DNA of 37,172 bases from an uncultured Methanosarcinales archaeon. Lineage in GTDB: Archaea > Nanobdellota > Nanobdellia > Woesearchaeales > CAYSVS01. The first letter of the stretch is position 1; the number at the start of each line of letters is the position of its first letter. Both the position numbers and the translations under genes were made by a program. The stretch lies in the NCBI GenBank assembly GCA_964589485.1, contig CAZPRK010000009.1, forward strand, positions 1 through 37,172, read 5' to 3'. The notes under the pieces were generated by a model that had not been told where the DNA came from, searched no databases, and saw nothing but the letters and a program-made list of their open reading frames with translations. Positions 4,288 through 24,251 of this stretch are shown here, piece after piece.

Positions 4288-5247
4288 AGCTTTATTGAAA
4301 GGGGTTTCTAAATCATATTTAATTTCATTTATGGTATGTTCATATAAAGGATCATAATATTTTTCAAGCATTGTAATTGTAAATTGTTCATATTCTTTAT
4401 TGTTAATATTACTTCTTAATTCTTCAATTACTTTATTAGATAATTTTTGTTTAAGTTTAGGTAAAATTTCTATAATGTAATCTAAATCTTTTTTTGTTAT
4501 ATTAGAAAAATATTCTTTTATGATTCTTTTTGCTCTATCTTTTAATGGACAAGTTATTTTAATTTTTTTACTTTTTTTCATTTTTTGCCATAAAAATTCA
4601 GGCATTTCAACTTTTCCGATTTTTCTTGATTCACCTTCAATAAATATATTTTTTTTATTTTCTAATTCTTTTAATTTATCGAATAATATTGCATCAAACA
4701 TTTTTTGACTTCTTGGTTTAAGACCAATTTTACCTAAAAGAGAGCTTCTATGTTGTGCAATGTCTTCAAGGTCTATTGTATCTTCTAATTCATGTAACAG
4801 TTCAGTTTTTCCTGCACCTGTAAGGCCATATAATACTGTTAATTTTGGCTTAAAATTAATACTCTTAAAGTAGTTTAGAACATAATTTCTATATGCTTTA
4901 TGCCCACCTTCTAGTTGTTTTACATAAAACCCTAGTGCATCTAAAAAATTAACAATAACTTTACTTCTCATTCCACCACGCCAACAATAAATTAAAAGTT
5001 TTTTATTTTTAAATTTAAAATAATCTTCCATCATTGTTGGCATTTTTTTAGAAAAAATATTAATACCTTCTTTAATTGCAATATTTTTACCTTCTTGTTT
5101 ATACAAAGTTCCTACTATTGCTCTTTCTTCATTTGTAAATAGAGGAATGTTTATAGCTTTAGGGATATGCGCTTCTTTAAATTCAGCAGGAGTTCTAGTA
5201 TCAATTATTATAAAATTTTCAGATTTAATTAATTCTTCGACTTTCAT
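4255..5247 (-). CDS. selU: tRNA 2-selenouridine synthase (rhodanese + P-loop, SelU/MnmH/YbbB)
   Basis: N-terminal rhodanese (IDTRTPAEF, HIPKAINIPL, VGTLYKQ, YCWRGGMRS), P-loop GLTGAGKT, DLEDIAQHRSS, EGESRKIG and YYDPLY motifs. Confidence 0.92.
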   Translation of the reverse strand: MKVEELIKSENFIIIDTRTPAEFKEAHIPKAINIPLFTNEERAIVGTLYKQEGKNIAIKEGINIFSKKMPTMMEDYFKFKNKKLLIYCWRGGMRSKVIVNFLDALGFYVKQLEGGHKAYRNYVLNYFKSINFKPKLTVLYGLTGAGKTELLHELEDTIDLEDIAQHRSSLLGKIGLKPRSQKMFDAILFDKLKELENKKNIFIEGESRKIGKVEMPEFLWQKMKKSKKIKITCPLKDRAKRIIKEYFSNITKKDLDYIIEILPKLKQKLSNKVIEELRSNINNKEYEQFTITMLEKYYDPLYEHTINEIKYDLETPFNKALIVLKENNSK

Positions 5248-9140: not shown

Positions 9141-9554
9141 ATGGAAAAACTACATTTTAAAAACGACTATTTCTATTTTTTATTTAGATTAGTTGTAGGA
9201 TTATTGTTTTTCTTGCACGGAGCACAAAAATTTGGTTTGATTGGAGAAGGTAATATTGCAGGTTTTGCAAGTGCTTTCGGATTTTCAACTGGATTAGCTA
9301 GCTTTGTTGGCTTAGTAGAATTATTAGGTGGATTATTTATTTTACTAGGACTTTGGACAAGGTTATCTTCTGCATTATTATCAGTAGTAATGTTAGTTGC
9401 AATGATTCTTGCTCATTTTCCAAAAGGATTAAACCCTTTGGCTAATGGAGGAGAATTGGCTTTATTATTCTTTGTAGGACTTTTAGTTCTATGGGATAGA
9501 GGTGCAGGAAAGTGGAGTTTGGAAAAAACTCTAACTGGAAAAGAATATTTTTAA
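9141..9554 (+). CDS. DoxX family membrane protein
   Basis: RLVVGLLFFLHGAQK, ELLGGLFILLGLWTR, GGELAL and GAGKWSLE signatures. Confidence 0.9.
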   Translation: MEKLHFKNDYFYFLFRLVVGLLFFLHGAQKFGLIGEGNIAGFASAFGFSTGLASFVGLVELLGGLFILLGLWTRLSSALLSVVMLVAMILAHFPKGLNPLANGGELALLFFVGLLVLWDRGAGKWSLEKTLTGKEYF

Positions 9555-9560: not shown

Positions 9561-11267
9561 TTATTTTATTATTTTTCTACCAATTGAAGTAATTTTTATA
9601 CATTTAACTCTTCCTTTTAATTCAATATTAATTAATCCTAATGCTTGTAACCTTTTAACTTTAGTTCTAGTTGTTGGTTTTGTTATATTAAATTTATTAG
9701 TAATATCTTTAAATGAAATTATTTTATTCATGTTATTATTAATATTAACAAGATTAAGAATTTCAAGTTCCATTTCACTTAAATTTACGTTATTAGATAA
9801 ATGTTTTCCATAAAGGTCTATTGCCTCTGAGTTAATTAATGAAAACTCTTCATCTTTTGTAATTGAAGTATTGATGGATAATATTATGATACAATTATTT
9901 TGTGAAATTAAATCTTTAAGTGAATGAATTGTACTTTTCATGTCATCAAAAGTATTTTGTGTAAAAAGATAGTTTAAATTTTCAATTAAAATTACACTTT
10001 TTTCACTTTTTAGGATAAACTCTTTAATTAATTCAATTAAAGTATTTATATTTGTTTCTGAAGGAGTATCTGTATTATTTTTACTTAACCAAATAAAACT
10101 AGTTTCTTTAAGATTATATTTTTCTTTAACTTTATTTGGATCTTCTCTTATTATTCCTAATCCTGCATATCCTTTATTTAATGCACTTATGAAAATATCA
10201 AAACAATTATTATCATCTTCTTCTTTAATTAAATACATTTTTTGGTTTTCTAATTTGATGTCAGAAGTAGTAAATTTATTTTTTTCTAATCCTATCTTAA
10301 TTCCTAATTTATTAAGCTTCTCTTGTACTTCTTCCTTGGATTTATGGACTTTTACTAATATTATAAATATTGAAATTATGCCTATTAATACAAAGCCTAA
10401 ACTATAGAAATGCCTTTTTTTAAGTTTCTTAATTTCATTTGAATGATTTTTTAACGGAGAAAAGACATATAAAGTCCATTTATCTCCACTTAAAAATAAA
10501 TCTGACGAAGTTTGTATTGTTTGTCCATAATCTAGGAAACTAGAAGTATGTAAATTTTTATTTGATATTTTTGTTTTGATATCATCAAATTCAGGAAAAT
10601 TATTACTTTTTAGTATTGTTTCTTTTGTTTCTGAATTAATTAAAATAAATTTATTATTAGAAGTGTCAAAGAATTTATGAAAATATAAATTTTTTAATAA
10701 ATCTAATTCTATTATACTTAATAAAACTCCTTTAAATTCACCCTTAAAGTTAGGATATGGTGTATATTCTGTTGTTTCATATAATGGAACAGAAACAAAT
10801 ATTTGTTTTTTATCGCCTTGTATTATTACTTCGCTAATAAAAGGTTCATTTGATTCTTTAGGATTAATAAAGTAATTTTTATTTTTTATATTTAGTTGTA
10901 AAAAATTAGAATATTCTTGTGAACTACATTCTGTAATGTCTCCTTTATCATTTACTCTAAGGATTGCTTGACTTTTTGTTTTTGTTTTTTCATGTATTTG
11001 TTTTAAGTTTCCATCACAACCTTTCAAATCTTCGGTTAATGGGAATTTAGTTAAAGTTATTAATCCATTTTTAACTTGAGTTACATGGTTTTCGAATTGT
11101 TTTGCTGCAAATTCGGTTTCAGTTAGTTGGCTTTTTTCAACTTGATCATATATGGTAATTTGTACTTGTGAAAAAGAAAGAATGTTGAAAAATATTATAA
11201 TTGCTATGCTTAAAAGAAAAATTAATGCGTAAATTAAGACTTTATGATTTCCAATTTTATCCTTCAT
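9561..11267 (-). CDS. Membrane-anchored one-component regulator: TM - extracellular Cache domain - TM - DUF835 - winged HTH
   Basis: Two TM helices flank a Cache-like region (KNYF..P..SNEPFISE, IFVSVPL, GEFKGVL, WTLYV). DUF835-like segment (GLGIIREDP, FIWLS, VILIENLNYL, LKDLISQNNCIIILSI). C-terminal wHTH (ITKPTTRTKVKRLQALGLI..KGRVK..ITSIG). Confidence 0.75.
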   Translation of the reverse strand: MKDKIGNHKVLIYALIFLLSIAIIIFFNILSFSQVQITIYDQVEKSQLTETEFAAKQFENHVTQVKNGLITLTKFPLTEDLKGCDGNLKQIHEKTKTKSQAILRVNDKGDITECSSQEYSNFLQLNIKNKNYFINPKESNEPFISEVIIQGDKKQIFVSVPLYETTEYTPYPNFKGEFKGVLLSIIELDLLKNLYFHKFFDTSNNKFILINSETKETILKSNNFPEFDDIKTKISNKNLHTSSFLDYGQTIQTSSDLFLSGDKWTLYVFSPLKNHSNEIKKLKKRHFYSLGFVLIGIISIFIILVKVHKSKEEVQEKLNKLGIKIGLEKNKFTTSDIKLENQKMYLIKEEDDNNCFDIFISALNKGYAGLGIIREDPNKVKEKYNLKETSFIWLSKNNTDTPSETNINTLIELIKEFILKSEKSVILIENLNYLFTQNTFDDMKSTIHSLKDLISQNNCIIILSINTSITKDEEFSLINSEAIDLYGKHLSNNVNLSEMELEILNLVNINNNMNKIISFKDITNKFNITKPTTRTKVKRLQALGLINIELKGRVKCIKITSIGRKIIK

Positions 11268-11288
11268 ATTTTATTTTTATTTGGTGAT

Positions 11289-11338
11289 TTTATAAAATTT
11301 TCCCTATTTTTTCCCTATTTTTTCGATTTATTTAAATA
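11289..11338. promoter_or_regulatory. Divergent promoter pair with tandem 11-bp direct repeats (candidate operator)
   Basis: TTTATAAA (11289-11296, ~22 nt from ATG 11267 minus) and TTTAAATA (11331-11338, plus) bracket TTTCCCTATTT x2 (11299-11309, 11310-11320) and a degenerate third unit. Confidence 0.55.
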
Positions 11339-11385
11339 CTAGGCGGATTTATTTGGTGTATACTCAAAAAACGGGGGAAGTTTAA

Positions 11386-12333
11386 ATGAACGATACAAAT
11401 GATATTGAAAAAAAAGGGGAAAGTCATTCTGGAATTAATAAAGAAGAAAATATTTCTAATGAAGTAATAGAAGAAACTAATAATCATAAAGAATTTGATA
11501 ATAAGGTTGAAATTTCTGAAAAGAAACATGAGCATAAAGAAAATGTAGAAGAAAAACTTACTCATGAAGAAGTTAAAAAGCCTGAAGTTGAAGTTTCTGA
11601 AAAGAAACATGAAGGAAGTAGCTTTAAAACAAAAAATATACATGCGAAACCAACTTATTTAAATAATCAACTTTCAATTATGATGGTGTTAGCAGCTGTG
11701 TTTATTTTATTAAATCAAATGCAAATAAATGCTTTATCTGATTCTTTATCTGGGAATTTAGGTTCTTCAGGTCATAGGCAAAGTGATTTGAGTAATATTG
11801 ATTTATCTCAATTAAAATCAACAGGGCATACTCTTGCTGCAGTTTATCCAATTGAGGATATAAAAAATGCAGAAGATGCAATGGCGATAATGTTTCCTAC
11901 AGGAAAACCTGATTATGGTGATGCTTTAGGTGTAACTTTTGATGATCCAGTAAATTCATTACAAACTTTAAATGACATGTATAGAGGATTAAAAGCTGAA
12001 GTTGAAAAGAAAGATCCTGATGCGTTTGCTAGATTTATTAATTTGGCTTCAAATCCTTATGGAGTTTCTTGTGAATATTGTTGCGGAATAGGACCTATTG
12101 GTTCAGACAAACAAGGAAATTCAAGGTGTGGATGTGCACATAATCCAGGAGTATTATCGGTAGCATTATATTTATCTGCTTATACGGATTATACAGATGG
12201 AGAAATTTTAAGAGAAGCAATGAGATGGAAAACATTATGGTTTCCAAAAAATATGATTGAGCTAGGAGCTAGCTTAGCAGGAGGAGATACTTCTGCATTA
12301 AAAGATTTACCAGGAATGGTAGGGGGGTGCTAG
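11386..12333 (+). CDS. Single-pass membrane protein with CEYCC...CGCAH cluster and C-terminal KDLPGMVGGC tail
   Basis: Acidic/His N-terminus, one TM helix (LSIMMVLAAVFILL), SCEYCCG...RCGCAH, ends in MVGGC-stop. GGGGG SD-like site upstream. Confidence 0.8.
   Translation: MNDTNDIEKKGESHSGINKEENISNEVIEETNNHKEFDNKVEISEKKHEHKENVEEKLTHEEVKKPEVEVSEKKHEGSSFKTKNIHAKPTYLNNQLSIMMVLAAVFILLNQMQINALSDSLSGNLGSSGHRQSDLSNIDLSQLKSTGHTLAAVYPIEDIKNAEDAMAIMFPTGKPDYGDALGVTFDDPVNSLQTLNDMYRGLKAEVEKKDPDAFARFINLASNPYGVSCEYCCGIGPIGSDKQGNSRCGCAHNPGVLSVALYLSAYTDYTDGEILREAMRWKTLWFPKNMIELGASLAGGDTSALKDLPGMVGGC
11506..11612 (+). repeat. 26-bp intragenic direct repeat (VE[I/V]SEKKHE twice)
   Basis: GTTGAAATTTCTGAAAAGAAACATGA (11506-11531) vs GTTGAAGTTTCTGAAAAGAAACATGA (11587-11612), 25/26 identical. 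Confidence 0.85.
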
Positions 12334-12336
12334 AAT

Positions 12337-12486
12337 ATGTATGAAATGTTAAAAACTTTATTTTTAGCAAAAAGGTATTTGTTGTTAGTTAGTATTATTG
12401 TTGTAGGACTTTTTTTAGTTGGGTGTAGCACTCAAGCAGGAAGTCCGCCACCATCTGGACCAATTGGCGGAGGGTGTGGAGGTTGA
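12337..12486 (+). CDS. Small lipoprotein-like peptide (49 aa) ending in GGGCGG; absent from the ORF track
   Basis: MYEMLKTLFLAKRYLLLVSIIVVGLFLVGCSTQAGSPPPSGPIGGGCGG*. Basic n-region, hydrophobic h-region, lipobox LVG|C. Starts 3 nt after the previous stop, and its TGA overlaps the next TTG start. Confidence 0.78.
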   Translation: MYEMLKTLFLAKRYLLLVSIIVVGLFLVGCSTQAGSPPPSGPIGGGCGG

Positions 12487-12866
12487 ATTACTCAAGTCAC
12501 ATTGAAAGAGAGCAAAGATTTGAACAACATAAACTTGAAAAAAAGAAAAAAAATCAAAAAATAATTGGAGTTTGTGTTGGGATTTTTTTGTTAATCTTAT
12601 CTGGGTTTGCTTATGTTAACTTATCACCTGGTAAATATGATGGGTTTGCTAAGTGTCTTACAGAAAAAGGAGTAGTTATGTATGGAGAGGATTGGTGTCC
12701 TTATACAAACGCTCAAAAAGGAATGTTTGGTAAGTCTTTCAAACATATTAACTATGTTGTTAAATCAGATCTTAAATTAAGACCAACTTGGGAAGTAGAT
12801 GGAGAAAGTTACGAAACAGTACAATCATTTCAAAGATTATCGGCTTTAACCGGTTGTAAATATTAG
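12483..12866 (+). CDS. Membrane-anchored thioredoxin-like protein with CxxT (WCPYT) site
   Basis: TM helix, then FAKCLTEKGVVMYGEDWCPYTNAQKGMFG...PTW...LTGC, resembling the VKOR-associated Trx-like domain. TTG 12483 chosen for GGAGG at 12469-12473 and the TTGA overlap. Confidence 0.75.
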   Translation: MNYSSHIEREQRFEQHKLEKKKKNQKIIGVCVGIFLLILSGFAYVNLSPGKYDGFAKCLTEKGVVMYGEDWCPYTNAQKGMFGKSFKHINYVVKSDLKLRPTWEVDGESYETVQSFQRLSALTGCKY

Positions 12867-12878
12867 GAGGAAATTAAA

Positions 12879-13103
12879 ATGGAAAAACCAACAGTTATTG
12901 CACTAGTATTAGGTGTATTAATAGTATTGTCAGCAGTACAAGCATTTCAATTAAATGCATTACAAGATAAATTAGAGGATGAAGATTTAACAGTTAAGTC
13001 TAGTCATTCTTCATCATCTGTAGCATCAAGCGGTGAGAGAAAAGCTCCATCTGCAGTTCCAGCAAGTATTAAAGACTTACCAACAATGGTCGGTGGATGT
13101 TAA
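12879..13103 (+). CDS. Small exported/anchored protein with Ser-rich linker and C-terminal KDLPTMVGGC tail
   Basis: Strong SD (AGGAGG), N-terminal hydrophobic helix, short coiled segment, low-complexity linker, MVGGC-stop. Confidence 0.85.
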   Translation: MEKPTVIALVLGVLIVLSAVQAFQLNALQDKLEDEDLTVKSSHSSSSVASSGERKAPSAVPASIKDLPTMVGGC

Positions 13104-13125
13104 TTTTTTAGTGGAGGTTTTTTAG

Positions 13126-14247
13126 ATGAAACATTATGGGAAAAAAGAATATACTAAATTGTATACTATTATGATTGTAGTTTTGGTTGCATTTACGGCA
13201 ATAAACTTAATTCAAAGTAGTAGTTTACAAGGGAAGTTAGTTGATAAGTTAGCTGAAATGAAGGAATTAAGTAGACCAGCTGAATTGGAATTAACTATCA
13301 TTAATTCAAATTGTAATGATTGTTTTGATATTTCTAGTATCGTAGATCAAGTTAAAAGTGGAAATGTAAATATTACAAATGAACTTAGTTTAAGTGCAGT
13401 AGAAGCTCAAGATTTAATTACTAAATATAACATAGAGAAATTGCCTTCATTAATTGTTAAAGGTGAACTTGAAAAAGTTCAATTAAGTAATTTTGATGAA
13501 AGTGAAGATGTATTATTATTTAGTCAACAACTTCCTCCTTTTGTAAATGTAAAAACAGGGAGTGTAGTAGGAAGAGTTACTGCAATTACAATTAGAGAAG
13601 AATCATGTGAAAAATGTTCAGATGTATCACAAATTTTAGCTGCAATGAAACAATCTCACATTAATATCATTTCTGAAAGAGTTATAGACTCTGATTCAAA
13701 AGAAGCTAGAAGTTTAATTACAAAATATGGAATAAGTAAATTACCAACTCTTGTTTTGTCTAGTGATATTAGAGCTTATAATAATGAAGTAACTCAAGCA
13801 CTTCCAGAGATTGGTGTCTTTGCTAATGATGGATCTTTTGTTACAAGAGAAGCAAATCCACCTTATTATGATTTGGCTACAAATAGTGTAAGAGGTTTAG
13901 TTGATTTAACTATTTTGAAAAGTTCAAGTTGTACTAACTGTTATGATGCAGAATCATTTCATGGTCCGATTATAGCAAGGTTAGGTATAGCATTGTCTGA
14001 TGTTAAAAAAGTAGATGTGAATTCAGCAGAAGGAAAAGAGTTAGTTAGTAAGTATAACGTTGTTGAAATACCAACAATTTTACTTAACGGAGATACTGAC
14101 TCTTATTCTCATTTACCTCAAATATGGGCAAATGTTGGAACTATTGAGCCAGATAAAACTTTTGTTTTTAGAAAAGTAAAAGAAATTACAAGACAAACTT
14201 ACTTTGATCTAAAACAAAATAAAGTTATTGAAGGTGGTCAACAATGA
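13126..14247 (+). CDS. Membrane-anchored protein with three tandem thioredoxin-fold CxxC domains
   Basis: CNDC...ITKYNIEKLPSLIV, CEKC...ITKYGISKLPTLVL and CTNC...VSKYNVVEIPTILL. N-terminal TM helix. GGAGG SD. Confidence 0.8.
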   Translation: MKHYGKKEYTKLYTIMIVVLVAFTAINLIQSSSLQGKLVDKLAEMKELSRPAELELTIINSNCNDCFDISSIVDQVKSGNVNITNELSLSAVEAQDLITKYNIEKLPSLIVKGELEKVQLSNFDESEDVLLFSQQLPPFVNVKTGSVVGRVTAITIREESCEKCSDVSQILAAMKQSHINIISERVIDSDSKEARSLITKYGISKLPTLVLSSDIRAYNNEVTQALPEIGVFANDGSFVTREANPPYYDLATNSVRGLVDLTILKSSSCTNCYDAESFHGPIIARLGIALSDVKKVDVNSAEGKELVSKYNVVEIPTILLNGDTDSYSHLPQIWANVGTIEPDKTFVFRKVKEITRQTYFDLKQNKVIEGGQQ

Positions 14248-14573
14248 AAAGGTTGTTTATCTTTTCTTTTTTTATTTTAATGTTATCAAATTTTGTAACT
14301 GCTCATGGAAGTGAAGGTGGTTACTTTAGTTTAATTGATATAGAACTTTATTTAGTATTTATTTTGGCAATATTTGCAGCGTTTTATGCATTTAAGAAAA
14401 GTAGTTATTTAGGAATTACTGCTTTATCTTTTGGATTAATTTTTTTGTTGAAAATACTTATTGATGTTTTTAGGTTATTTTATGTTCCTGAAGATGCATT
14501 GTTACATATTACACAAATATTTGGAATTATTGCATTGGTTAATTTAATATTGGGAGTAAAAGAATTGAAATGA
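14244..14573 (+). CDS. Small membrane protein (signal peptide ending A|HG plus 3 TM helices)
   Basis: Hydrophobic 109-aa ORF with ATGA overlaps at both ends. Confidence 0.7.
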   Translation: MKRLFIFSFFILMLSNFVTAHGSEGGYFSLIDIELYLVFILAIFAAFYAFKKSSYLGITALSFGLIFLLKILIDVFRLFYVPEDALLHITQIFGIIALVNLILGVKELK

Positions 14574-15166
14574 AAAAACTACTTTTAATTTTATTTGGAA
14601 GTGGAATTTTGTTAAGTTTAATAGCTTTTTTTATTACAAGTTCATCAAATGTTGTTGGTGATAAAGAAATACTTGCAGAAATTGAAAGGGTTAGTAACTT
14701 ACCTTATAAGGTAGTTTCTTATGATAGTGTAACTCCTGCTGATTTGAAAAAATTATCTGAATTAAGTGCTAAAGATGAAATTGCTAAAAGTCTGATTGAT
14801 GAAGCTGTTTGGCTTTCATCAAATGATGAACACGAACATGTTGGTCATTCATTATATTATTTAGGTGAATACGTAAAAAAAGCAGAAGATGTTTTTTGTT
14901 TACCTCATGAATTAGAACATATTCAAATTTATTTAGAACATGATGCAATTGAGTTAGCTGAAAAACAAATTAGGATTGCTACAAAATATCAAAAAGATTG
15001 GTATGCTTCAACTGAAAGGAAATATAATAAATTTCCTCAATATTTTCCTAAGTATAGCGAATTGATATCAGCTACAAATAAAGCTTTAGAAAATTTAAAT
15101 AAAGGAGATTACGGAAAAGAAACAATGGAATTTATTGGTTTTTCCATTTATTATTCGATATGTTGA
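14570..15166 (+). CDS. Exported helical protein with His clusters (HEHVGH, CLPHELEH)
   Basis: N-terminal signal/anchor, His/Glu clusters, C-terminal Cys. Translationally coupled within the operon. Confidence 0.7.
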   Translation: MKKLLLILFGSGILLSLIAFFITSSSNVVGDKEILAEIERVSNLPYKVVSYDSVTPADLKKLSELSAKDEIAKSLIDEAVWLSSNDEHEHVGHSLYYLGEYVKKAEDVFCLPHELEHIQIYLEHDAIELAEKQIRIATKYQKDWYASTERKYNKFPQYFPKYSELISATNKALENLNKGDYGKETMEFIGFSIYYSIC

Positions 15167-16131
15167 AAATGAACAAAACAATTATATTAACATTGTTAGG
15201 AATGCTTTTGATTAGTGTAACTTATGTGGAAGCATCAGAAAATTTACCTATTGGTTTGCAGAAAATTATTGATTATAATAATGAACAAACTGCAGATTTT
15301 GCTTTAAAAATATCTTTTTTAATTGCATTTGTAGCTGGAATGTTGGGAATACTCTCCCCGTGTATTCTTCCATTTCTTCCAGCTTACTTTTCTTTAACAT
15401 TTAAAGAGAAAAAAAATGTGACTAAAATGACATTTATATTCTTTTTAGGATTTTCTTTTACTTTTGTATTTATGGGTGTTGTTGCAGGTTTTATCGGAGA
15501 GCATACATTATCGGTTTTACAAACTGGTTGGTTAGTTAGTATAGCCGGTGTATTTATGGTTTTAATGGGAATTATTGTATTAAAAGGTCAAAAAATGTGT
15601 AATTATGTTAATATAAAAACTTTAAATAAATATGGCGATGATACAATTGGAACTTTTTTATTTGGATTATTTTTTGCTCTTGGATGGACTGCATGCCTTG
15701 GTCCAATTTTAGGAGGGATATTAGGAATAGGAGCTATAATGGGTAATATTTGGAAAAGTGCATTACTTTTATTTTTCTACTCTCTTGGAAATTTAATTCC
15801 ATTATTTATTTTAAGTATTTTTTATGATAAATTTAAATTATCTGAAACAAAATTAATTAAAGGAAAAATGTTAAGTTTTAATTTTTTAGAAGATACTTAT
15901 CATATACATAGTACTAATTTAATATCTGGATTATTGTTTATTATATTAGGAATAACTGTTGTAATTTTTAATGGAACAAGAGTTTTTAATACGTGGGATT
16001 TTTTAGGAACTAAAGATTACTTTTACTCAATACAAGATGTTTTGATTAATTCGGGTTATGCAAATTATATAGGAATAGCAGCTTTTATTTTATTAGGTAT
16101 ATTATTTTATTGGTACAAATCACGATCGTAG
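15160..16131 (+). CDS. ccdA: CcdA/DsbD-beta family transmembrane thiol-disulfide transporter
   Basis: AGMLGILSPCILPFLPAY and LGWTACLGPILGGIL catalytic Cys motifs, YSLG..IP, multiple TM helices. Confidence 0.9.
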   Translation: MLKMNKTIILTLLGMLLISVTYVEASENLPIGLQKIIDYNNEQTADFALKISFLIAFVAGMLGILSPCILPFLPAYFSLTFKEKKNVTKMTFIFFLGFSFTFVFMGVVAGFIGEHTLSVLQTGWLVSIAGVFMVLMGIIVLKGQKMCNYVNIKTLNKYGDDTIGTFLFGLFFALGWTACLGPILGGILGIGAIMGNIWKSALLLFFYSLGNLIPLFILSIFYDKFKLSETKLIKGKMLSFNFLEDTYHIHSTNLISGLLFIILGITVVIFNGTRVFNTWDFLGTKDYFYSIQDVLINSGYANYIGIAAFILLGILFYWYKSRS

Positions 16132-16186
16132 CTGGCAATTTGAAAAATATACGTCCCCGTTGTATATTATCAAATTGTCAGTCTAC
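16128..16186 (+). other. Long imperfect inverted repeat (stem-loop) filling the ccdA / DUF255-ccdA intergenic gap
   Basis: GTAG-CTGGCAATTTGAAAAATATAC, loop GTCCCCGTT, GTATATTATCAAATTGTCAGTCTAC. About 22 pairable positions with small bulges. Confidence 0.65.
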
Positions 16187-16198
16187 TATATTTTAAAA

Positions 16199-18601
16199 AT
16201 GAAAAGGATAACTTTATTTATAATATTTTCTCTTTTTCTAGTTACATTTGTATCTGGTGAGTATACAAAAGAAACTTCTGAAGAGTTAGAACATTTAATT
16301 AATTGGCAGGAATATACTCCTAAAACTTTTCAAAAAGCCTTATCTGAAAAAAAACCAATTTATTTAGTGGTGTCTGCTCCTTCATGGTGTTATTGGTGTC
16401 ACGTTTATGAAAGTGAAGATTATTTGTATAATTCTGTTTTATATCCATACATAAATGAAAATTTTATTCCCGTTTTAGTTGATTCTGATAAAAGACCTGA
16501 TTTAACTAGGAAGTATTTAGAAGGGGGATGGCCGTCTACAACTATATTAGCTCCAAATATGCAAAGAATAAACGGATTTACTGGTCCAAGAGATCCAAAA
16601 GGTTTACAAGAATATCTTGAAAGCCTAATTATTTATTTAGTTGATAAAGACTTTTCTTTATTTGAAAATTCAATTGAATATAGTAAAATTGATGTTGTTT
16701 TACCTTCGGAAAATAATGATTTAAGAAAAAAATATCTTGACTTAGTTAAAAAAAATTATGATACTTTTTATGGTGGTTTTGGTTTAGGTAATGCTCCTAA
16801 ATGGAGGGAAGGACAAAAATTTCCAAGACCATTAACTTTGAAACTTTTTATGGAAGAATATGAAAAATCAGGTGATGAAATTTATTATGACATGGTATTA
16901 AAAACATTTGAAAATCAATTTACTAGTGATTTAGAAAATTATAAACTTTATGATCCTGTAGAAGGTGGGTTTCATAGATATTCTACAAAAAGGGATTGGA
17001 CAATTCCACATTATGAAAAAATGTTATATGATCAAGCTAAATTGATTAGTGTTTATTCTAAATTAGATGTTGCTGAATTAGTTGTAAACAAAAGTCTTGA
17101 TTTTATTTTTTCTAAATTTTATGATTCTGATGGAGGATTTTATTCTAGTCAAGATGCGCATTTGGAAAGTGAATACTTTGGTGAAAAAAATAGATCTGAA
17201 TTAGAGCAACCATTTATAGATAAAACAAGAAAAATAAATGATAATGCGTTAATGATAATTACTTTAATTGAGTTAGGTTATAATGAAGAAGCAAAAAAAA
17301 GTTTAGATTTTATTAAGAATAACATGTTGAGCGATGGTTTATTTTATTACTATGATCATGAATTAAAAAAACCATTTCTTGATGGACAAAGTTTATCCAA
17401 TTCATATGGATTATTGGCTTTTATTTCTGCATATGAAAAATATGGTGAATATTTAGATGAATCTAAACAAATAGCAGATTATTCTTTAGATAATTTGTAT
17501 GATTGGAACAGTGCAGGATTTTTTGAAAGGAATAGTAAAAACATTAATTTTTATGCATTAAATGAAAGAATTAGTTTAAATAGGAATTATGAAGAAAACG
17601 CAGTTTTTGTTTATGGTTTGATTAAGTTATATTTATCTACTAATGATGATAAATATTTAGATCCGTCTTTGAAAACTTTAGGTTACTTAGTTCAAAATTT
17701 TCAATTTAGTGATGAAAGTTATTACGTTATTAAATCTTTAGAGTTAGTTAATGAAAATAATTTAATTAATAAACATAAAACTTTTAGCAGAGATAATTTT
17801 TGGTTAAATGATTTATTGGATGTAAAAAGTAATACTATTTCTTTAGATGATGCTCCATTGTTAAAACCAGAATTTGCTGATGTTAGTACTGTTATTTTAA
17901 TATTAGTTTCTTTTTTAGTTGGCTTGCTAAGTTTTTTATCTCCTTGTACTTTACCTATTCTTCCTGTATATTTTGCAGTTAATATTAATTCAAAAAAATC
18001 TATAAAAGATACTTTATTGTTTGTTATAGGTGTAGCCTTAATTTTTAGTTTATTTGGAATGGGTGCTGGATTTGTTGGAAGTTATTTGAAAGATTATAGA
18101 AGCATAGTAACAAAAATAGCTGGTTTATTGATTATATTATTTGGAATTTTAGAATTAAAAGGTAAAGGGTTTTCTGGGTTTAAGATAAATAAAAAAATTG
18201 AAAATAGCTTTTTATTAGGTTTAACCTTTGGAATTGGTTGGAGTGCTTGTATTGGTCCAATATTAGCTTCTTTCCTTTTATTAGCAAGTACAAGTGGAAC
18301 TATCTTTAAAGGAACTTTATTGTTATTTATTTATGCATTAGGGTTATGTTTACCTTTAATTTTAATATCTCCATTTTTTGATAAGTTTAAGAAAACTAAG
18401 TATTGGGAGTATCTTAAAGGAAGAGAAATATATGGAATGCATTCTACTTACTTGATTTCTGGTTTGATTTTAATTATATTAGGTATATTGATTTATTTTG
18501 ATTTCTTGTTTAGTTTAAATGAATATGCTTTACAAAGTGAATATGTTCAGAAAGTAATAATTACTGGAGAAGAATTTTTAAAAAAAGTATTTTTAAGATA
18601 G
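16199..18601 (+). CDS. Exported DUF255/YyaL (thioredoxin + alpha/alpha barrel) protein fused to a C-terminal CcdA domain
   Basis: Signal peptide from ATG 16199. WCYWCHV, DKRPDL, GGWPST, KFP, GGFHRYS, IPHYEKMLYDQA and GGFYSSQDA, then LSPCTLPILP and GWSACIGPILA. Confidence 0.88.
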   Translation: MKRITLFIIFSLFLVTFVSGEYTKETSEELEHLINWQEYTPKTFQKALSEKKPIYLVVSAPSWCYWCHVYESEDYLYNSVLYPYINENFIPVLVDSDKRPDLTRKYLEGGWPSTTILAPNMQRINGFTGPRDPKGLQEYLESLIIYLVDKDFSLFENSIEYSKIDVVLPSENNDLRKKYLDLVKKNYDTFYGGFGLGNAPKWREGQKFPRPLTLKLFMEEYEKSGDEIYYDMVLKTFENQFTSDLENYKLYDPVEGGFHRYSTKRDWTIPHYEKMLYDQAKLISVYSKLDVAELVVNKSLDFIFSKFYDSDGGFYSSQDAHLESEYFGEKNRSELEQPFIDKTRKINDNALMIITLIELGYNEEAKKSLDFIKNNMLSDGLFYYYDHELKKPFLDGQSLSNSYGLLAFISAYEKYGEYLDESKQIADYSLDNLYDWNSAGFFERNSKNINFYALNERISLNRNYEENAVFVYGLIKLYLSTNDDKYLDPSLKTLGYLVQNFQFSDESYYVIKSLELVNENNLINKHKTFSRDNFWLNDLLDVKSNTISLDDAPLLKPEFADVSTVILILVSFLVGLLSFLSPCTLPILPVYFAVNINSKKSIKDTLLFVIGVALIFSLFGMGAGFVGSYLKDYRSIVTKIAGLLIILFGILELKGKGFSGFKINKKIENSFLLGLTFGIGWSACIGPILASFLLLASTSGTIFKGTLLLFIYALGLCLPLILISPFFDKFKKTKYWEYLKGREIYGMHSTYLISGLILIILGILIYFDFLFSLNEYALQSEYVQKVIITGEEFLKKVFLR

Positions 18602-19932: not shown

Positions 19933-20358
19933 ATGAAAAAAGGAATAGATTATACTGGAATAACTGTAGTATTTTTTTGTCATGATGGGCAGGGAAATTT
20001 TCTTTTAGCAAAAAGAAGTACTTCTTGTAGGGATGAACATGGAAGATGGGACCCTGGCGGAGGGGCATTAGAAGTAGGATATTCTGTAGAAGAAACTTTA
20101 AGAAAGGAAATATTTGAAGAATATGGTACTTCAGTAATTGATTTAGAATTTTTAGGTTATAGAGATGTTCATAGAGAAAAAACTCATTGGATTGCATTAG
20201 ATTTTAAAGTTCGTGTTGATAGAATTAAAGTAAAAAACAACGAACCTCATAAATTTGATGAAATAGGTTGGTTTAAATTAGATAATTTGCCTCAACCCTT
20301 ACATAGCCAAATGGGGATATACTTGGAAAAATATAAAGATAAACTTATTTTTTCTTAA
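19933..20358 (+). CDS. NUDIX hydrolase
   Basis: Nudix box GGALEVGYSVEETLRKEIFEEYG, plus NEPHKFDEIGWF. Confidence 0.9.
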   Translation: MKKGIDYTGITVVFFCHDGQGNFLLAKRSTSCRDEHGRWDPGGGALEVGYSVEETLRKEIFEEYGTSVIDLEFLGYRDVHREKTHWIALDFKVRVDRIKVKNNEPHKFDEIGWFKLDNLPQPLHSQMGIYLEKYKDKLIFS

Positions 20359-21235
20359 CAACCTTATGTCCGCCAAATTCATTCCTTACGGCTGAAATTA
20401 CTTTTTTACCTAAATTAAATTTATTACTTTTGTCTTTTCTAATTTTAACTGATTCTTTAAAAGCAGGGGTATATCCTCTAACTGATTTAACTGTATTTTG
20501 TAGTTCATCTATTGTTACACTACCTATTTCTTTGCTAATATTATTAAAATCAGGTCTTCTTAAAGCGATAGTGGTTAAGTCAACTAACCAACTTCTGATT
20601 ACTGATGAATCTTGCCATCCTTCTGTTGCTTCATCTAACTTAATGTTATGCTTAAATTTATTTAATAATTCAATTCCTTCAGCTAAGCCTTGAAGGTAAG
20701 TATATTCAACTATATTGTGTACACTTTTAACAAAATGTCCAGATCCAGCAGGTCCAAAATATTTATATCCTTTTTTTGTAGAAAGTGTTTTCATAAAAGG
20801 CTCTATATATTTGTATTGGCTTTTTGGGCCACCGATCATTAAAGGATATCCGTTTTTTAAACCCCATATTCCTCCTGAAACTCCAACGTCAAAAAAATAA
20901 ATTCCTTTTTCTTTACACCATTTATCATGTTTTTCTGCATTTTTATAAAATGAATTAGCTCCATTGATTATAATATCACCTTTATTTAATAAAGCTAAAA
21001 TTTGTTTCATGTTTGAATCTGTGACATTCCCTGTAGGTAGCATTAACCAAACTATTTTTTTCTTTCCTAATTTTTGGACAAATTCTTTTAAGTTATAAGC
21101 TGGAATTGCGCCTTTTTTAGCAATAGATTTAACTTTATCTGGGCTTCTGTTATATGCAACTACTGAATGTTTTTTTAGAAGTCTTTGAACCATATTGTAT
21201 CCCATTCTACCTAACCCAATAAAGCCAATTTTCAT
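20345..21235 (-). CDS. gnd: 6-phosphogluconate dehydrogenase, short-chain decarboxylating type
   Basis: GLGRMG Rossmann motif, AYNRS, WLMLP, DVGVSGGIWG, GSGHFVKSVHNIVEY, SVIRSWL and RNEFGGH. Confidence 0.93.
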   Translation of the reverse strand: MKIGFIGLGRMGYNMVQRLLKKHSVVAYNRSPDKVKSIAKKGAIPAYNLKEFVQKLGKKKIVWLMLPTGNVTDSNMKQILALLNKGDIIINGANSFYKNAEKHDKWCKEKGIYFFDVGVSGGIWGLKNGYPLMIGGPKSQYKYIEPFMKTLSTKKGYKYFGPAGSGHFVKSVHNIVEYTYLQGLAEGIELLNKFKHNIKLDEATEGWQDSSVIRSWLVDLTTIALRRPDFNNISKEIGSVTIDELQNTVKSVRGYTPAFKESVKIRKDKSNKFNLGKKVISAVRNEFGGHKVVKKK

Positions 21236-22518
21236 ATTATATCACCAAGTTTACTTTTTTTGTTATATTTAATTAATTTCTTTTTTTTAATTTTATCTAC
21301 AATTTTCCATTGATATTCTATTTCATCATTTCTCATAAACACAGAATGGTCTCCTTTGATTACATCTTCTAAAAGTTTTTCATAAGCTTCTGGTGAATTT
21401 GGAAAGTGACAATTGTAACAAAAATCCATGTTAATTGGAATTATTTTTGAACTAAAAGGAGATTTAGCGTTTAAAGCCATTTTAAACCCTTGTTGAGGTT
21501 GTATGTCTAAGATTAATTTATTACTTTCTAATTCACAATTAAACAATACGCAAGGTGCTTCTTTAAATTCAATTGTAATATTTGAACTTCTTTCAGATAA
21601 ATTTTTTCCAGTTGTTAAAAAGAAAGGAACGCCTTTCCAACGAGAATTGTTAATTGACATTTCAACTGAAGCAAAAGTTTCAGTATTAGATTTATGACCA
21701 ACTTCTTTAACATATTCTTTATATTGGCCAAGGATTGTTTTATTTATTTTTGCTTTTTTTAAGACTTTTACCTTTTCATTCCTTATAAATTTTGATTCTA
21801 ATTTTTTAGGTTTTTCCATAGCAACTAATGCTAATAATTGTAATAAATGGTTTTGAAGTACATCTTTAATTGCTCCGTACTTATCATAAAATTTTGCTCT
21901 GGTTTCAACTCCAAAATCCTCTTGTACTAAAATGTTTATTTTTTTAATATGTTTATTGTTCCAAATGGGTTCAAATATTTTATTTGTAAACCTTAATATT
22001 GCCAAATTTTGAACAGTATCTTTTCCAAGGTAATGGTCTATTCTGTAGATCTCTTTTTCTTTAAAATGTTTTTTTATTGTTTTATTAATATCTTTGGCTG
22101 ATTTTAAATCATTACCAAAAGGTTTTTCAAAAACAATTTTACCTTTAAGTTTATTTTTACTGAAATTATTTATTATTGATTTAAAATGTTGAGGAAGAGT
22201 AGCTAAATAGAATATTTTTTCACTTTTTAATTTATGTTTTTTTTCAACATTTTTAATGAAAGAATCTAAATTATTAAATTTATCAGAATAAAAATCACTC
22301 TCAAAATGATATGTTTTTGAATTAAGTTTTTTTAAAACATTATCATCAGGTTTTTTAATATATTTTTTTGATTCTAAAATTATGTTGATTTTACTTCTGG
22401 AAACTCCAATTATTGCAAATTTATTTAATTTTTCTTTTTTAACTAGCTTATAGATTGCTGGAATTAATTTCTTTTTGGTTAAATCTCCGCTAGCACCTAA
22501 AATTACAAATGTAGTCAT
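21232..22518 (-). CDS. zwf: Glucose-6-phosphate 1-dehydrogenase (bacterial type)
   Basis: GASGDL..KKLIPA, EKPFG.DL.SA, RIDHYLGK, DVLQNHLLQ, TETF, RWKGVPF and EAYEKLL. Confidence 0.96.
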   Translation of the reverse strand: MTTFVILGASGDLTKKKLIPAIYKLVKKEKLNKFAIIGVSRSKINIILESKKYIKKPDDNVLKKLNSKTYHFESDFYSDKFNNLDSFIKNVEKKHKLKSEKIFYLATLPQHFKSIINNFSKNKLKGKIVFEKPFGNDLKSAKDINKTIKKHFKEKEIYRIDHYLGKDTVQNLAILRFTNKIFEPIWNNKHIKKINILVQEDFGVETRAKFYDKYGAIKDVLQNHLLQLLALVAMEKPKKLESKFIRNEKVKVLKKAKINKTILGQYKEYVKEVGHKSNTETFASVEMSINNSRWKGVPFFLTTGKNLSERSSNITIEFKEAPCVLFNCELESNKLILDIQPQQGFKMALNAKSPFSSKIIPINMDFCYNCHFPNSPEAYEKLLEDVIKGDHSVFMRNDEIEYQWKIVDKIKKKKLIKYNKKSKLGDII

Positions 22519-23294
22519 TTTAATAATTTAGCATATTCGGGAATAATATCTTTTGTGAATGATTTTATACCTTCATCTGTTTTTTTATGTTCAAGTAATT
22601 CTTTGATTACATTATATGGCAGAGTAGATATGTCTGCTCCATTAACTGCACATTCTCTTACTTGTCTTGAATTTCTTAAGGATGCAGCTAAAACTTCACA
22701 TTTAATATTATATTTTTTGAAAATTATTTTTATTTGTTCTACTAAGTCAACTCCCGAAACAATACCATTATCCTCTAACTTTCTCATTCCTTCTTCTGGA
22801 AAATATTCTGTTTTGTTGAATTTTAGTTTATGTTTTGTTCTAATATAATCATCCATTCTCCCTGCAAATGGACTTATAAATTTTGCTCCAGCTTTTGCTG
22901 CTAATAAAGCTTGTTCTGGAGTGAAAATAAGAGTACAATTAATAGGAATATTTTTTTTTGATAAATATTTAATAGCTCTAATTCCATCATAACTATTATT
23001 AGTATTTACTGGAATTTTAATATAAACATTTTTTGCAATAGGGTTAAACATCTTAAATAATTTAAGTCCTTGTTTAACCATTCCTTCATAACTTAGTTCA
23101 GTAACTTCTAAAGATACAGGTGTGCCTTTGGCAAGAATTAGAATTTTTTTAATATAATTCTTCATATCTTTTGTTTTATGTTTTAATCCTGCTTTTTTAA
23201 TTAAACTAGGGTTAGTTGTTACTCCATCTACTATTCCCATAGTATAAGCATCTTTAATTTCATCTATATCTGCTGAATCAATAAAAATTTTCAA
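22515..23294 (-). CDS. tal: Transaldolase (small TalC/FSA fold)
   Basis: FIDSAD, GVTTNPSL, SLEV, IKIP, NCTLIF..EQA, ISPFAGR and AASLR. The Glu in SLEV and Phe in SPF favour transaldolase over FSA. TTG 23294 follows a GAGGTG SD. Confidence 0.88.
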   Translation of the reverse strand: MKIFIDSADIDEIKDAYTMGIVDGVTTNPSLIKKAGLKHKTKDMKNYIKKILILAKGTPVSLEVTELSYEGMVKQGLKLFKMFNPIAKNVYIKIPVNTNNSYDGIRAIKYLSKKNIPINCTLIFTPEQALLAAKAGAKFISPFAGRMDDYIRTKHKLKFNKTEYFPEEGMRKLEDNGIVSGVDLVEQIKIIFKKYNIKCEVLAASLRNSRQVRECAVNGADISTLPYNVIKELLEHKKTDEGIKSFTKDIIPEYAKLLK

Positions 23295-23418
23295 AAATAA
23301 CACCTCTTTAATGAAATTAAGAAATTAAGATATATAAATTTATGTTTTTTTAACTAAAATTTACTTTATTGTTATTTAATCAAAACATTAATAAATAATA
23401 GAAATTTAAAAACAAGAT

Positions 23419-24072
23419 ATGTACTACCCAATATTTGCAGGAATTGCAGTTTCAATAATGCATTACCTAAACCAAAGTTATTTTTCTAAATTGAAAGATA
23501 TGCGTTTAGTTTCTTTTTCTTCAGGGATTTCTATATCATATATTTTTTTACATTTGTTTCCGCAATTTACTAAATCTGTAAGTGGGAATAGATTGTTTTT
23601 TATATTAGTTTTATTGGGTTTTGCAACATTTCATTTAGTTGAAAAATATATATATAAAAATACTAAAAATGCTAAGTATAAATTAGCAATAGAAGATTCT
23701 ATTATTTCTGCTTTATATCATTTTTTTACAGGGATATTGTTAGTTAATTTTTTTAATATAAATTTTTTAGAAGGAATTTTATTTACTATTCCAATATTTT
23801 TACATACTGGTGTTTCAAGGCATCCTTTTGATATTTCTAAACTTAAAAATATTCAATATTTAACTGCTTTATCAACATTAATTGGAGTAATCGTAGCAAT
23901 ATCTACTTTTAGTTATTTTCATGCTGACTTTTTTAATGTAGTTTTAGGGTTTGTTCTAGGAGCATTAATATTTACAGTAACTCGTCATTCTTTACCTAAA
24001 GAAAAAGAAGGCGAACCTTTATTCTTTATGCTTGGAGCTTTATTGTATAGTATTTTTCTTTTTATTGTATAA
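23419..24072 (+). CDS. ZIP-like divalent metal transporter
   Basis: Multi-TM protein with SGISISYIFLHLFP, YHFFTG, FLHT and GALIF...HSLP. Confidence 0.6.
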   Translation: MYYPIFAGIAVSIMHYLNQSYFSKLKDMRLVSFSSGISISYIFLHLFPQFTKSVSGNRLFFILVLLGFATFHLVEKYIYKNTKNAKYKLAIEDSIISALYHFFTGILLVNFFNINFLEGILFTIPIFLHTGVSRHPFDISKLKNIQYLTALSTLIGVIVAISTFSYFHADFFNVVLGFVLGALIFTVTRHSLPKEKEGEPLFFMLGALLYSIFLFIV

Positions 24073-24251
24073 TTCAGGAATTATAAAAATTAAACTAATT
24101 GAAAAAATAATACTTAGTTTATTTGAAATGAATAAATTTTCTCCAAAGAATGAATATTATCAATAAGAGAAAAGTTAATTATTTTGTTTAGTATAATAAA
24201 TAAAACACTAATTCTTACTATTCACAATATTCCCTTAAATATTTTATTCAT
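24073..24251 (-). pseudogene. Possible decayed membrane-protein gene remnant
   Basis: An ATG overlapping the pgl stop gives MNKIFKGIL*IVRISVLFIILNK. Another frame gives FFGENLFISNKLSIIFSISLIFII. Weak signal in AT-rich DNA. Confidence 0.2.

Follow-up and report, generated by a model that had tools for sequence, protein, structure and literature searches.

A conserved set of terminal-cysteine proteins, thioredoxins, and CcdA in DPANN archaea: a candidate extracytoplasmic thiol relay

Three tailed proteins in a membrane-directed gene cluster

We analyzed a stretch of 37,172 nucleotides (hereafter, the window) from contig CAZPRK010000009.1 of assembly GCA_964589485.1, derived from an uncultured archaeon labeled “Methanosarcinales”; assembly labels, including “Patescibacteria” below, are given as deposited. 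The window has a G+C content of about 25%, and the closest named relatives of its proteins come from Woesearchaeota, Nanoarchaeota, and other DPANN assemblies. At issue here is a cluster of nine plus-strand genes (11386-18601) which abut or overlap and encode membrane or secreted products, each with at least one transmembrane (TM)-like segment in a Kyte-Doolittle scan, and which face a divergently transcribed membrane sensor-regulator (Table 1). Three of the products carry a Gly-Gly-Cys tail: a protein with a CEYCC motif, a small lipoprotein (the lipopeptide), and a short protein that we call arm-only. A first-pass annotation had proposed that the whole cluster handles thiols, sulfur, or metals at the cell surface, and the co-oriented genes, tails, thioredoxin sites, two CcdA domains, CEYCC and CGCAH motifs, and His-rich proteins on which it was based were all located as it had stated. 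Searches of the window proteins against Pfam and NCBIfam yielded DsbD_TM twice, Thioredox_DsbH, thioredoxin units, DUF835, and a weak winged helix, with zero matches for the three tailed proteins and for the proteins of 130, 109, and 198 amino acids (aa).

Table 1. Features of the gene cluster and of the divergent regulatory region (window coordinates)
Feature	Coordinates	Strand	Description
Membrane sensor-regulator	9561-11267	-	568 aa; DUF835 + winged helix-turn-helix; divergent
Divergent intergenic region	11268-11385		candidate operator repeats
CEYCC protein	11386-12333	+	315 aa; CEYCC at residues 229-233, CGCAH at 248-252; C-terminus LPGMVGGC
Lipoprotein (lipopeptide)	12337-12486	+	49 aa; lipobox LVGC; C-terminus GGGCGG
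Single CxxT thioredoxin	12474-12866	+	130 aa; WCPYT
Arm-only protein	12879-13103	+	74 aa; C-terminus LPTMVGGC
Triple thioredoxin	13126-14247	+	373 aa; CNDC, CEKC, CTNC
Small membrane protein	14244-14573	+	109 aa; four hydrophobic segments
His-motif protein	14570-15166	+	198 aa; HEHVGH, HELEH; C-terminal ..YYSIC
CcdA	15160-16131	+	323 aa; DsbD_TM
DUF255-CcdA fusion	16160-18601	+	813 aa; WCYWC + CcdA domain

The CEYCC protein comprises a cytoplasmic N-terminal tail rich in His, Lys, and Glu, a single TM helix, a mainly helical ectodomain, and a flexible arm of about 28 residues leading to the terminal Cys. It has 467 homologues (E ≤ 1e-3) among 1736 candidates, and its profile, compared with 1.84 billion (1.84e9) cluster representatives, matched 278 of them at E ≤ 1e-3. 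The 120 best homologues are 58-100% identical over the ectodomain; wherever a source name is given among these 120, it reads “hypothetical protein,” and a Pfam domain is present in P0112 only. Within the ectodomain, C229, C232, C233, C248, C250, and H252 are invariant and make up a CxxCC...CxCxH cluster. Alignments of 26 and of 68 members keep all five Cys, the His, and the final V-G-G-C without exception.

The tail singled out by the first-pass annotation proved to be conserved in the family. All 120 near homologues end in [MQ][VI]GGC, and 109 of the 149 remote cluster representatives end in GGC; because most of the other 40 are fragments or have G[SDAE]C ends, the last Cys is the most stubborn feature of the tail. 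Measured from a conserved WKxLFFP motif to that Cys, the arm has a median length of 28 residues in near homologues (range 27-108) and of 34.5 residues in remote ones (range 23-70). For the genomic analysis, one genome per species was scanned, which gave relatives in 213 genomes; 80 loci were retained, and neighboring genes were clustered for 74 anchored loci, with all locus genes taken from our own calls of open reading frames (ORFs). Many of the locus contigs are short, so that absences make the frequencies below lower bounds on presence. In the 80 sources with a complete CEYCC ORF, all of these ORFs end on Cys. Out of 11,874 ORFs of at least 25 aa from the 80 loci and the window, 173 end in GGC followed by zero to two Gly, and by our reading all but two of these belong to the three tailed families of the module. 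Chance is excluded as the origin of the GGC tails. None of 21 pattern matches fits selenocysteine or another substitution in the tail context, and a search for the tail on other, longer proteins, which is weak evidence in itself, gave zero matches.

In the AlphaFold2 model of the CEYCC protein (68 sequences; predicted local distance difference test score (pLDDT) 87.5, predicted template modeling score 0.77), a TM helix is followed by a short disordered stretch and then by a mainly helical domain, in which the Cys knuckle is rich in loops. Foldseek comparison of both models that we obtained with the PDB gave zero matches at E ≤ 0.001 (best E values of 2.1 and 0.76); the best match of the sequence profile in the PDB (E 0.73) was an insignificant one to a CEYC in the zinc domain of aspartate carbamoyltransferase, and the ESM Atlas returned “hypothetical” clusters of the same family only. 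The modeled tail has a pLDDT of 60-81 in the first model and of 83-89 in the second, and this moderate to high confidence is a hint that it may have a defined docking place rather than being a random coil. Some CEYCC forms of Micrarchaeota and Iainarchaeota carry an extra multi-TM domain with a CP[TS]CG motif, which ties the CEYCC protein to a Cys-bearing membrane domain, and one homologue is fused to an FKBP domain. Profile comparison (hhalign) of the CEYCC family with DUF411, CcdA, and the triple thioredoxin detected only the shared TM anchor (P 2e-4). Between the multi-TM domain of the fusions and a neighboring TM-CxxxC family, hhalign gave a weak match (P 0.003, probability 9.8%) and BLAST gave one pair at 8e-6; no kinship of the two is claimed.

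The arm-only protein is built of a signal-anchor helix with a QAxQLN motif resembling the NQxQIN of the CEYCC protein, a Ser/Gly-rich linker, and the end ...LPSSxxNLPxMVGGC, with 40-53 residues between the anchor-helix motif and the terminal Cys. In an alignment of 46 such proteins, L67, V71, G72, G73, and C74 are invariant. Its gene lies on the CEYCC strand in 73 of the 80 complete-CEYCC sources, no more than 2.6 kb downstream in 70 and usually within 100 nt; of the seven sources that lack it, four have less than 400 nt of contig left. In one source (P0082), the CEYCC ORF reads into the arm-only ORF (...LPGIVGGC-EGGKK-M...LPQMVGGC), by read-through or owing to a missed stop, so that the two genes are directly adjacent in that genome. 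The lipopeptide has a mature length of only about 20 aa, with the end PPPSGPIGGGCGG and a SoxY-like GGCGG terminus. The family end is PPPSGP[IV]GGGC(G)(G), and the lipopeptide and most of its 15 relatives end in GGGC(G)(G); P0271 and P0272 are close relatives. In 15 of the 23 loci with a CxxT thioredoxin gene, the lipopeptide gene lies directly upstream of that gene or overlaps it. In the window, the two genes share 13 nt (12474-12486), the thioredoxin gene starting at a GTG within the last lipopeptide codons, and overlaps or gaps of a few bases recur in other loci, which suggests translational coupling.

Conservation of the module, its predicted electron supply, and its neighbors

When the 80 loci were searched by tblastn, the CEYCC protein was found in 80, the triple thioredoxin in 62, CcdA in 57, and a single thioredoxin in 29. 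The association of the tails with ccdA and thioredoxin genes, which the first-pass annotation had drawn from one operon, is thus borne out, and its assumption that all nine genes form one system was too broad: only four to six of them are conserved. The core comprises four genes, encoding the CEYCC protein, the arm-only protein, the triple thioredoxin, and CcdA, of which the CEYCC gene serves as the anchor. Genes of the module recur in 19-80 of the 80 loci and the genes flanking it in the window in 0-2; the linkage is therefore not inherited synteny, and the module moves as a whole. Its genes are usually arranged with a regulator on the opposite strand, followed by those for the CEYCC protein, optionally the lipopeptide and the CxxT thioredoxin, the arm-only protein, the triple thioredoxin, and CcdA. 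Collectively, the regulator, CEYCC, arm-only, triple thioredoxin, and CcdA genes constitute a mobile conserved gene set, to which the GGGCGG lipopeptide and the monothiol thioredoxin are a clade-scattered add-on, and all parts of the module face or span the membrane.

CEYCC genes are also present on contigs deposited as bacterial (L044, labeled Patescibacteria, as well as L061, L076, and L040). In L044, genes for ComEC, phosphofructokinase, and class II aldolase lie beside the CEYCC gene, and with such bacterial-type neighbors the family may reach bacteria of the candidate phyla radiation. L044 and L061 group together inside the archaeal tree. L040, which encodes an intein-containing RtcB and archease, looks archaeal.

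The triple thioredoxin is membrane-anchored and consists of three units like those of protein disulfide oxidoreductases (PDOs), each with a CxxC and a conserved Pro, by our reading probably the cis-Pro. It is matched by Pfam Thioredoxin_3 (E 5.6e-14) and also by Thioredoxin and Glutaredoxin, scores 49.7 bits with the NCBIfam PDO model (TIGR02187; cut-off 185), and has its best PDB relatives among archaeal and Aquifex PDOs (1j08, 1a8l, 2ayt). Exactly three CxxC motifs are present in 42 of 43 orthologues, and the six Cys and three Pro vary little or not at all; the dipeptides between the Cys are variable and often acidic. The 130-aa protein is a membrane-anchored single thioredoxin-like domain of the VKOR-associated type, the profile of its family matching the VKOR/thioredoxin-domain protein of Synechococcus in the PDB (3kp9/4nv2, E 5.3e-24). 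Both proteins belong to the thioredoxin fold, the former by its CxxC-bearing domains and the latter as a monothiol (CxxT) variant in which Thr takes the place of the second Cys; the latter also keeps a Cys pair (C61, C128) that we call structural. In the loci, the single-thioredoxin family comprises 23 CxxT members, located beside the lipopeptide, and 11 CxxC members (CPHC-like), often located beside CcdA. A quick tree, which is not to be over-read, scatters the CxxT sub-module over the family and needs at least five changes.

Both CcdA domains are conduits of the DsbD_TM family, with 65.5 and 56.2 bits against a cut-off of 27.1. CcdA itself (Pfam DsbD_TM E 5.6e-18, above the cut-off) has Cys68 and Cys179, and the DUF255-CcdA fusion has Cys596 and Cys697, all located in or beside hydrophobic segments at what we take to be the canonical CcdA positions. 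The fusion consists of a signal-like segment, a thioredoxin domain similar to DUF255/DsbH, a middle part similar to PDB entry 7tkv, and the CcdA TM domain (Pfam Thioredox_DsbH E 6.1e-18 and DsbD_TM E 4e-15; in the PDB, CcdA 5vkv at E 9.4e-26 and the Thioredox_DsbH protein 7tkv at E 1.4e-18 over residues 36-338). By its domain composition, it appears to be a second conduit joined to its own outward-facing acceptor, and it was found in only 3 of the 74 anchored loci (the window, L008, and L034). Two further genes are lineage-specific. The 109-aa protein, with a signal-like segment, three TM-like segments, and zero Cys, recurs in 0 of 80 loci and has no family match in Pfam or NCBIfam. The membrane-anchored 198-aa protein, the fourth terminal-Cys protein of the operon, recurs in 2 of 80; it too has no family match, and its neighbors in the ESM Atlas include none above 0.79.

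The divergent sensor-regulator has a TM segment (residues 11-29), an ectodomain of about 255 aa, a second TM segment (287-305), DUF835, and a C-terminal winged helix. Its description as a membrane-bound DUF835 protein with a winged helix-turn-helix (wHTH) holds in Pfam (DUF835 E 3.2e-24), the wHTH being weak (MarR_2 E 7e-4, below the cut-off). The Cache label that it had also received stands at the family level, given that dCache_1 matched 13 of 20 aligned orthologues (best E 2.1e-07); in the window copy, the domain was not detected at E ≤ 0.1. Two ectodomain Cys, C84 and C114, are near-invariant (19 and 20 of 20 orthologues, respectively). The sensor is present in 22 of the 80 loci by tblastn and in 20 of the 74 anchored loci by clustering, with 18 of 21 members on the opposite strand. 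Regulators differ by lineage: besides the DUF835 sensor (20 of 74 loci), there are BlaI with an M48-like protease (12-13 loci), a TM-wHTH protein (13), and ArsR (7). The divergent intergenic region contains a tandem direct repeat of TTTTCCCTATT (two copies, 11298-11319) and two copies of TTTATTTGGTG (at 11276 and 11348); these are candidate operator sites, although short two-copy repeats in AT-rich DNA may arise by chance. An Rfam search found no riboswitch or other RNA upstream of the module, its only match in the window being a tRNA at 36547-36648. This match, on the plus strand, spans 102 nt (44.3 bits) and ARAGORN detected none in the window, a combination consistent with an intron-containing archaeal tRNA.

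Among the thiol-related neighbors in the 74 loci are DsbA-like proteins (9 loci), DoxX (8), DUF1573 (7), and Lgt (10). A DoxX gene lies just upstream of the module in the window (9141-9554), and the DUF1573 representative examined also has a rhodanese domain. The Lgt homologues (Pfam LGT E 2.9e-36) are encoded beside lipobox proteins in archaeal assemblies (L004, L005, L024, L034, L042, L045, L048, L056, L069, and L071). Three accessory families may be related to metals: a small surface domain with four invariant His (HxH...H...H; 16 of 74 loci, e.g., L008:4659-5102, L022:12997-13455, and L059:8210-8797), an “NTHSV..GHH” domain paired or fused with the TM-CxxxC protein (10 loci), and DUF411 (9 loci). 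The His-motif families have no relative in Pfam, NCBIfam, or the PDB.

Elsewhere in the window, the plus strand opens with a gene (1-4287, 5′ end open) for a giant surface protein. This product, at least 1428 aa long, contains 94 Cys (6.6%), multiple C..W...WC modules, and a run of Ser and Gly, and a TM segment anchors it at the C-terminus; it has no Pfam match and a weak one to the NCBIfam “acidic double-disulfide repeat,” below the cut-off. A surface thiol-disulfide system might have this protein among its clients. Large Cys-rich ORFs are found near the module in only 9 of 81 sources, and we rejected such giants as regular neighbors of it. The minus strand encodes the tRNA 2-selenouridine synthase MnmH (4255-5247; 358.5 bits, cut-off 241), which implies the use of selenium in a DPANN archaeon, and a run of pentose-phosphate genes (20345-28861: 6PGDH-like, G6PD, transaldolase, 6-phosphogluconolactonase, ribulose-phosphate epimerase, and RpiB). 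Among the latter lies a class-I pyridine-nucleotide disulfide oxidoreductase (25475-26872), which has no NCBIfam equivalog above the cut-off; its MerA score is below threshold (317.9 against a cut-off of 454), and it lies 7 kb from the module. The run and the oxidoreductase could supply NADPH and disulfide-reductase activity. A link of the module to MnmH or to the pentose-phosphate genes was rejected, since these recur in 0-1 of the 80 loci (MnmH in 0 of 80).

A proposed thiol relay and the alternatives to it

We interpret the module as an undescribed extracytoplasmic thiol relay, found mainly in DPANN, in which a reducing line from CcdA to thioredoxins would service terminal-Cys swinging arms around a new Cys-cluster ectodomain; in our judgment the balance for and against this interpretation is about even. 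We commit ourselves to reductive disulfide/thiol chemistry as its primary currency; the cargo may be a disulfide, sulfur or selenium, or a soft metal. The proposal of the first-pass annotation, in which CcdA and thioredoxins would serve the C-terminal Cys arms of a surface thiol system, was upheld in that Pfam, NCBIfam, the PDB, and the literature contain no characterized match to such a system, and none is known in these sources for the three tailed families. In the literature searched, “MVGGC” occurs in unrelated contexts only, and none of the papers found joins Woesearchaeota or DPANN with CcdA plus thioredoxin or disulfide; among those listed by a broader search, none joins DPANN with CcdA or DsbD.

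That CcdA moves reducing equivalents outward to thioredoxin-fold acceptors is established for the family to which the protein is assigned; every step beyond the reduction of thioredoxins by CcdA is one that we infer. Cytoplasmic reducing equivalents would cross the membrane via CcdA, and in the window also via the DUF255-CcdA fusion, and would then reduce the membrane-anchored triple thioredoxin. The thioredoxins would hold the terminal-Cys arms as free thiols or free them from mixed disulfides. The arms would swing back and forth from the thioredoxins to the CxxCC...CxCxH cluster in the ectodomain of the CEYCC protein, and at this cluster an external substrate would be handled. The arm-only protein and the lipopeptide would act as tethered thiol co-substrates; lacking a periplasm, the cell could not retain glutathione or another diffusible thiol. 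A single-Cys protein reacts only through mixed disulfides or adducts, and a CxxT thioredoxin forms a mixed disulfide but cannot itself resolve one. The CxxT thioredoxin may be the dedicated partner of the single-Cys lipopeptide, and their pairing is the best internal hint that a mixed disulfide between arm and thioredoxin is a real intermediate. A more specific version, possible although in our opinion doubtful, is that the arm-only protein and the lipopeptide are a tethered “glutathione,” that is, gene-encoded membrane-tethered thiol cofactors which would replace the soluble low-molecular-weight thiol in small-genome archaea lacking a periplasm; the CxxT thioredoxin would then be a monothiol glutaredoxin-like partner, CcdA and the triple thioredoxin the reductase line, and the CEYCC protein the enzyme using the arms as co-substrates.

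Several observations weigh against a thiol relay. CcdA is absent from 23 of the 80 loci, some of them on short contigs, and the variability of the CxxC dipeptides in the triple thioredoxin is unusual for a tuned redox enzyme. Furthermore, the cytoplasmic N-tail is His-rich (at least 6 His in the first 80 residues) in 38 of the 120 near CEYCC homologues, so that metal traffic fits this feature as well as redox does, and the possibly metal-related neighbors jointly occur in 29 of the 74 loci. A relay for the capture and hand-over of a soft metal (Cu(I), Zn, Hg, or similar) is an alternative that we consider unlikely: the Met-x-x-x-Cys tails and the CEYCC cluster would bind the metal as thiolates and hand it to a membrane domain bearing Cys, from which it would reach the His-rich tail in the cytoplasm; otherwise, the arms would sequester it. 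CcdA and the thioredoxins would serve only to keep the ligands reduced. CC, CxC, and CxxC clusters are typical of Cu(I)-thiolate sites, and the ArsR-family regulators of 7 loci, the ZIP and Fur genes next door in one locus, and the fusions of the CEYCC protein to the CP[TS]CG multi-TM domain and, once, to FKBP agree with such a role. However, none of the three accessory families is encoded in the window, and their domains belong to no known family, which makes metal binding by them putative. HMA, CopZ, MerP, and MerT domains were not detected in the window proteins or the neighbor representatives, and the one P-type ATPase from the loci that was examined belongs to the Cation_ATPase (Ca/Mg) type and bears no HMA. 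Moreover, to our knowledge, metal relays such as mer need no thioredoxins or CcdA, the near-universal partners of the module. A last adverse point is that the invariant Cys of the CEYCC protein number six, an even number, and could form three structural disulfides, one of them stapling the tail. The tail would then be no swinging arm at all but a structural staple bonded to the odd Cys of the core, or else, given that VGGC resembles a lipobox and that Lgt homologues occur in 10 of 74 loci, a signal for C-terminal processing or lipidation. We hold this very unlikely even though the tail is modeled with fair confidence: the arm-only protein, with its single Cys, contains no domain to which a staple could attach, the motif is confined to two or three families instead of varied cargo (in part weak evidence), a lipobox comes after a signal-peptide helix whereas the GGC tail has no such helix, and the constant company of thioredoxin and CcdA would be left unexplained.

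Two other alternatives keep the thiol chemistry and assign it a different purpose. The terminal Cys might be a SoxY-like carrier of sulfane sulfur, thiosulfonate, or selenium, loaded and unloaded by the CEYCC protein and cleared of wrong adducts by the thioredoxins. The arrangement of CcdA, thioredoxin, and carrier Cys parallels that of SoxV, SoxS, and SoxY as outlined in two published accounts (PMC10451225, PMC5336275), the lipopeptide has a SoxY-type GGCGG end, DUF1573 occurs in 7 loci (with rhodanese in the one examined), and MnmH is encoded in the same window. We nevertheless regard a sulfur or selenium carrier as rather improbable, and the analysis does not bear out the minimal Sox-like system drawn from the first-pass annotation. 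GGCGG is present on the 49-aa lipoprotein only, the two main families ending in MVGGC, on Cys and not on CGG. SoxY and SoxZ models of Pfam and NCBIfam matched none of the tailed proteins at E ≤ 0.01, nor two of them up to E 5, and the CEYCC model is mainly helical. SoxXA, SoxB, and SoxCD, like SoxY and SoxZ, are missing from the window and from the scanned representatives of neighbor families, and the annotation's own remark that the window lacks Sox enzymes and heme-c proteins was correct: the only window proteins with CxxCH are the DUF255 protein, at its active site, and G6PD, and the motif turns up in 5 of 968 neighborhood ORFs, a count which points to no c-type cytochromes. MnmH is unlinked to the module (0 of 80 loci), tail variants with selenocysteine number zero, and rhodanese is rare. 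The module might instead serve oxidative folding or isomerization of Cys-rich surface proteins, with the triple thioredoxin as an isomerase similar to protein disulfide isomerase, CcdA as the reducing branch, and the CEYCC protein as a disulfide generator or shuttle as in oxidases of the Erv2/Ero1 type. To this we give slight credence. The kinship of the triple thioredoxin to archaeal PDOs, the VKOR-partner type of the single thioredoxin, the DsbA-like genes in 9 of 74 loci, the 94-Cys surface protein at the start of the window, and the folding domain (FKBP) fused to one CEYCC homologue would all suit such a machinery, but the CEYCC protein resembles VKOR, DsbB, Erv, or Ero1 in neither sequence nor fold, no flavin or quinone site is evident in it, and no disulfide-generating cofactor enzyme is recognizable. 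In addition, the Cys-rich ORFs are infrequent near the module (9 of 81 sources), and a single-Cys arm-only protein would have no obvious role in folding.

The records of the 213 species genomes carrying the module are named as several DPANN lineages. DPANN are a large and almost uncultured part of archaeal diversity which live attached to other cells, so that surface chemistry is central to them, and the module is among the more strongly conserved unknowns of the genomes that carry it. With it, CcdA-type electron export would gain a concrete client in organisms that have no cytochromes c, its lipopeptide may be the smallest known swinging-arm cysteine carrier, and the few Patescibacteria-labeled loci hint that both major groups of ultra-small episymbionts share it. 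If tethered thiols are indeed what the arms are, the module would represent a new class of protein-borne redox cofactor system and would name the long-missing CcdA clients in archaea without c-type cytochromes.

Comparison with known systems

The closest parallel in organization is found in Streptococcus pneumoniae, a bacterium without a periplasm, in which, according to the published study, CcdA feeds the surface-tethered Etrx1 and Etrx2, which reduce MsrAB2, the genes being clustered (PMC3914529). The module shares with that system the supply of surface-tethered thioredoxin-fold proteins by CcdA and the clustering of the genes. In the archaea, by contrast, the acceptor would be a new Cys-cluster ectodomain together with arm-only thiols, the thioredoxin is a three-unit PDO-like protein, and Msr domains (PMSR, SelR) were absent in Pfam scans of the window proteins and the neighbor-family representatives. 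In the Sox system, SoxY carries intermediates “through a cysteine in a swinging arm,” in the words of one passage (PMC5336275), and the CcdA homologue SoxV with a periplasmic thioredoxin (SoxS/SoxW) services the carrier Cys of SoxY, as described in two papers (PMC10451225, PMC5336275). Common to Sox and to the module are a carrier Cys on a Gly-rich C-terminal arm, in the lipopeptide even with the GGCGG end, and an electron supply of the CcdA type. The carriers of the module, in contrast, are membrane-anchored, one of them being a bare peptide of about 20 aa, and in their dominant tails (...MVGGC) the Cys comes last.

Individual components have relatives of their own. Archaeal PDOs (PDB 1a8l, 1j08, 2hls), the nearest sequence relatives of the triple thioredoxin, have the same tandem thioredoxin/glutaredoxin-like CxxC units; PDOs are cytoplasmic two-unit proteins, whereas the triple thioredoxin has three units and an N-terminal TM segment and, with a score far below the PDO cut-off, is related to that family without being a member. 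The 130-aa family shares the YG..WC..[CT]..QK..FG site region with the thioredoxin-like domain of bacterial VKOR (3kp9/4nv2) but is seen without the VKOR membrane domain, and Thr replaces the second Cys in 23 of its 34 members. Flexible C-terminal arms with a Gly-flanked Cys or Sec that shuttle between a buried center and an external partner are known from flavoprotein disulfide reductases, namely mammalian thioredoxin reductase (-GCUG) and MerA (a C-terminal Cys pair), where they are cytoplasmic and form part of FAD/NAD(P)H enzymes. In the module, the arm lies outside the cytoplasm on a domain unmatched in the PDB, and it recurs as a protein of its own.

As for the remaining candidates, the window proteins scanned have no Pfam match to ResB/CcsB or ResC/CcsA of System II cytochrome c maturation, and, judged by its families, the module is not a Sox, cytochrome c maturation, or Mer system. 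Its electron-supply half can be assigned to known families, CcdA and the thioredoxin fold, and its predicted acceptor half cannot. We regard the whole as an extracytoplasmic CcdA/thioredoxin pathway of a known kind with putative new clients.

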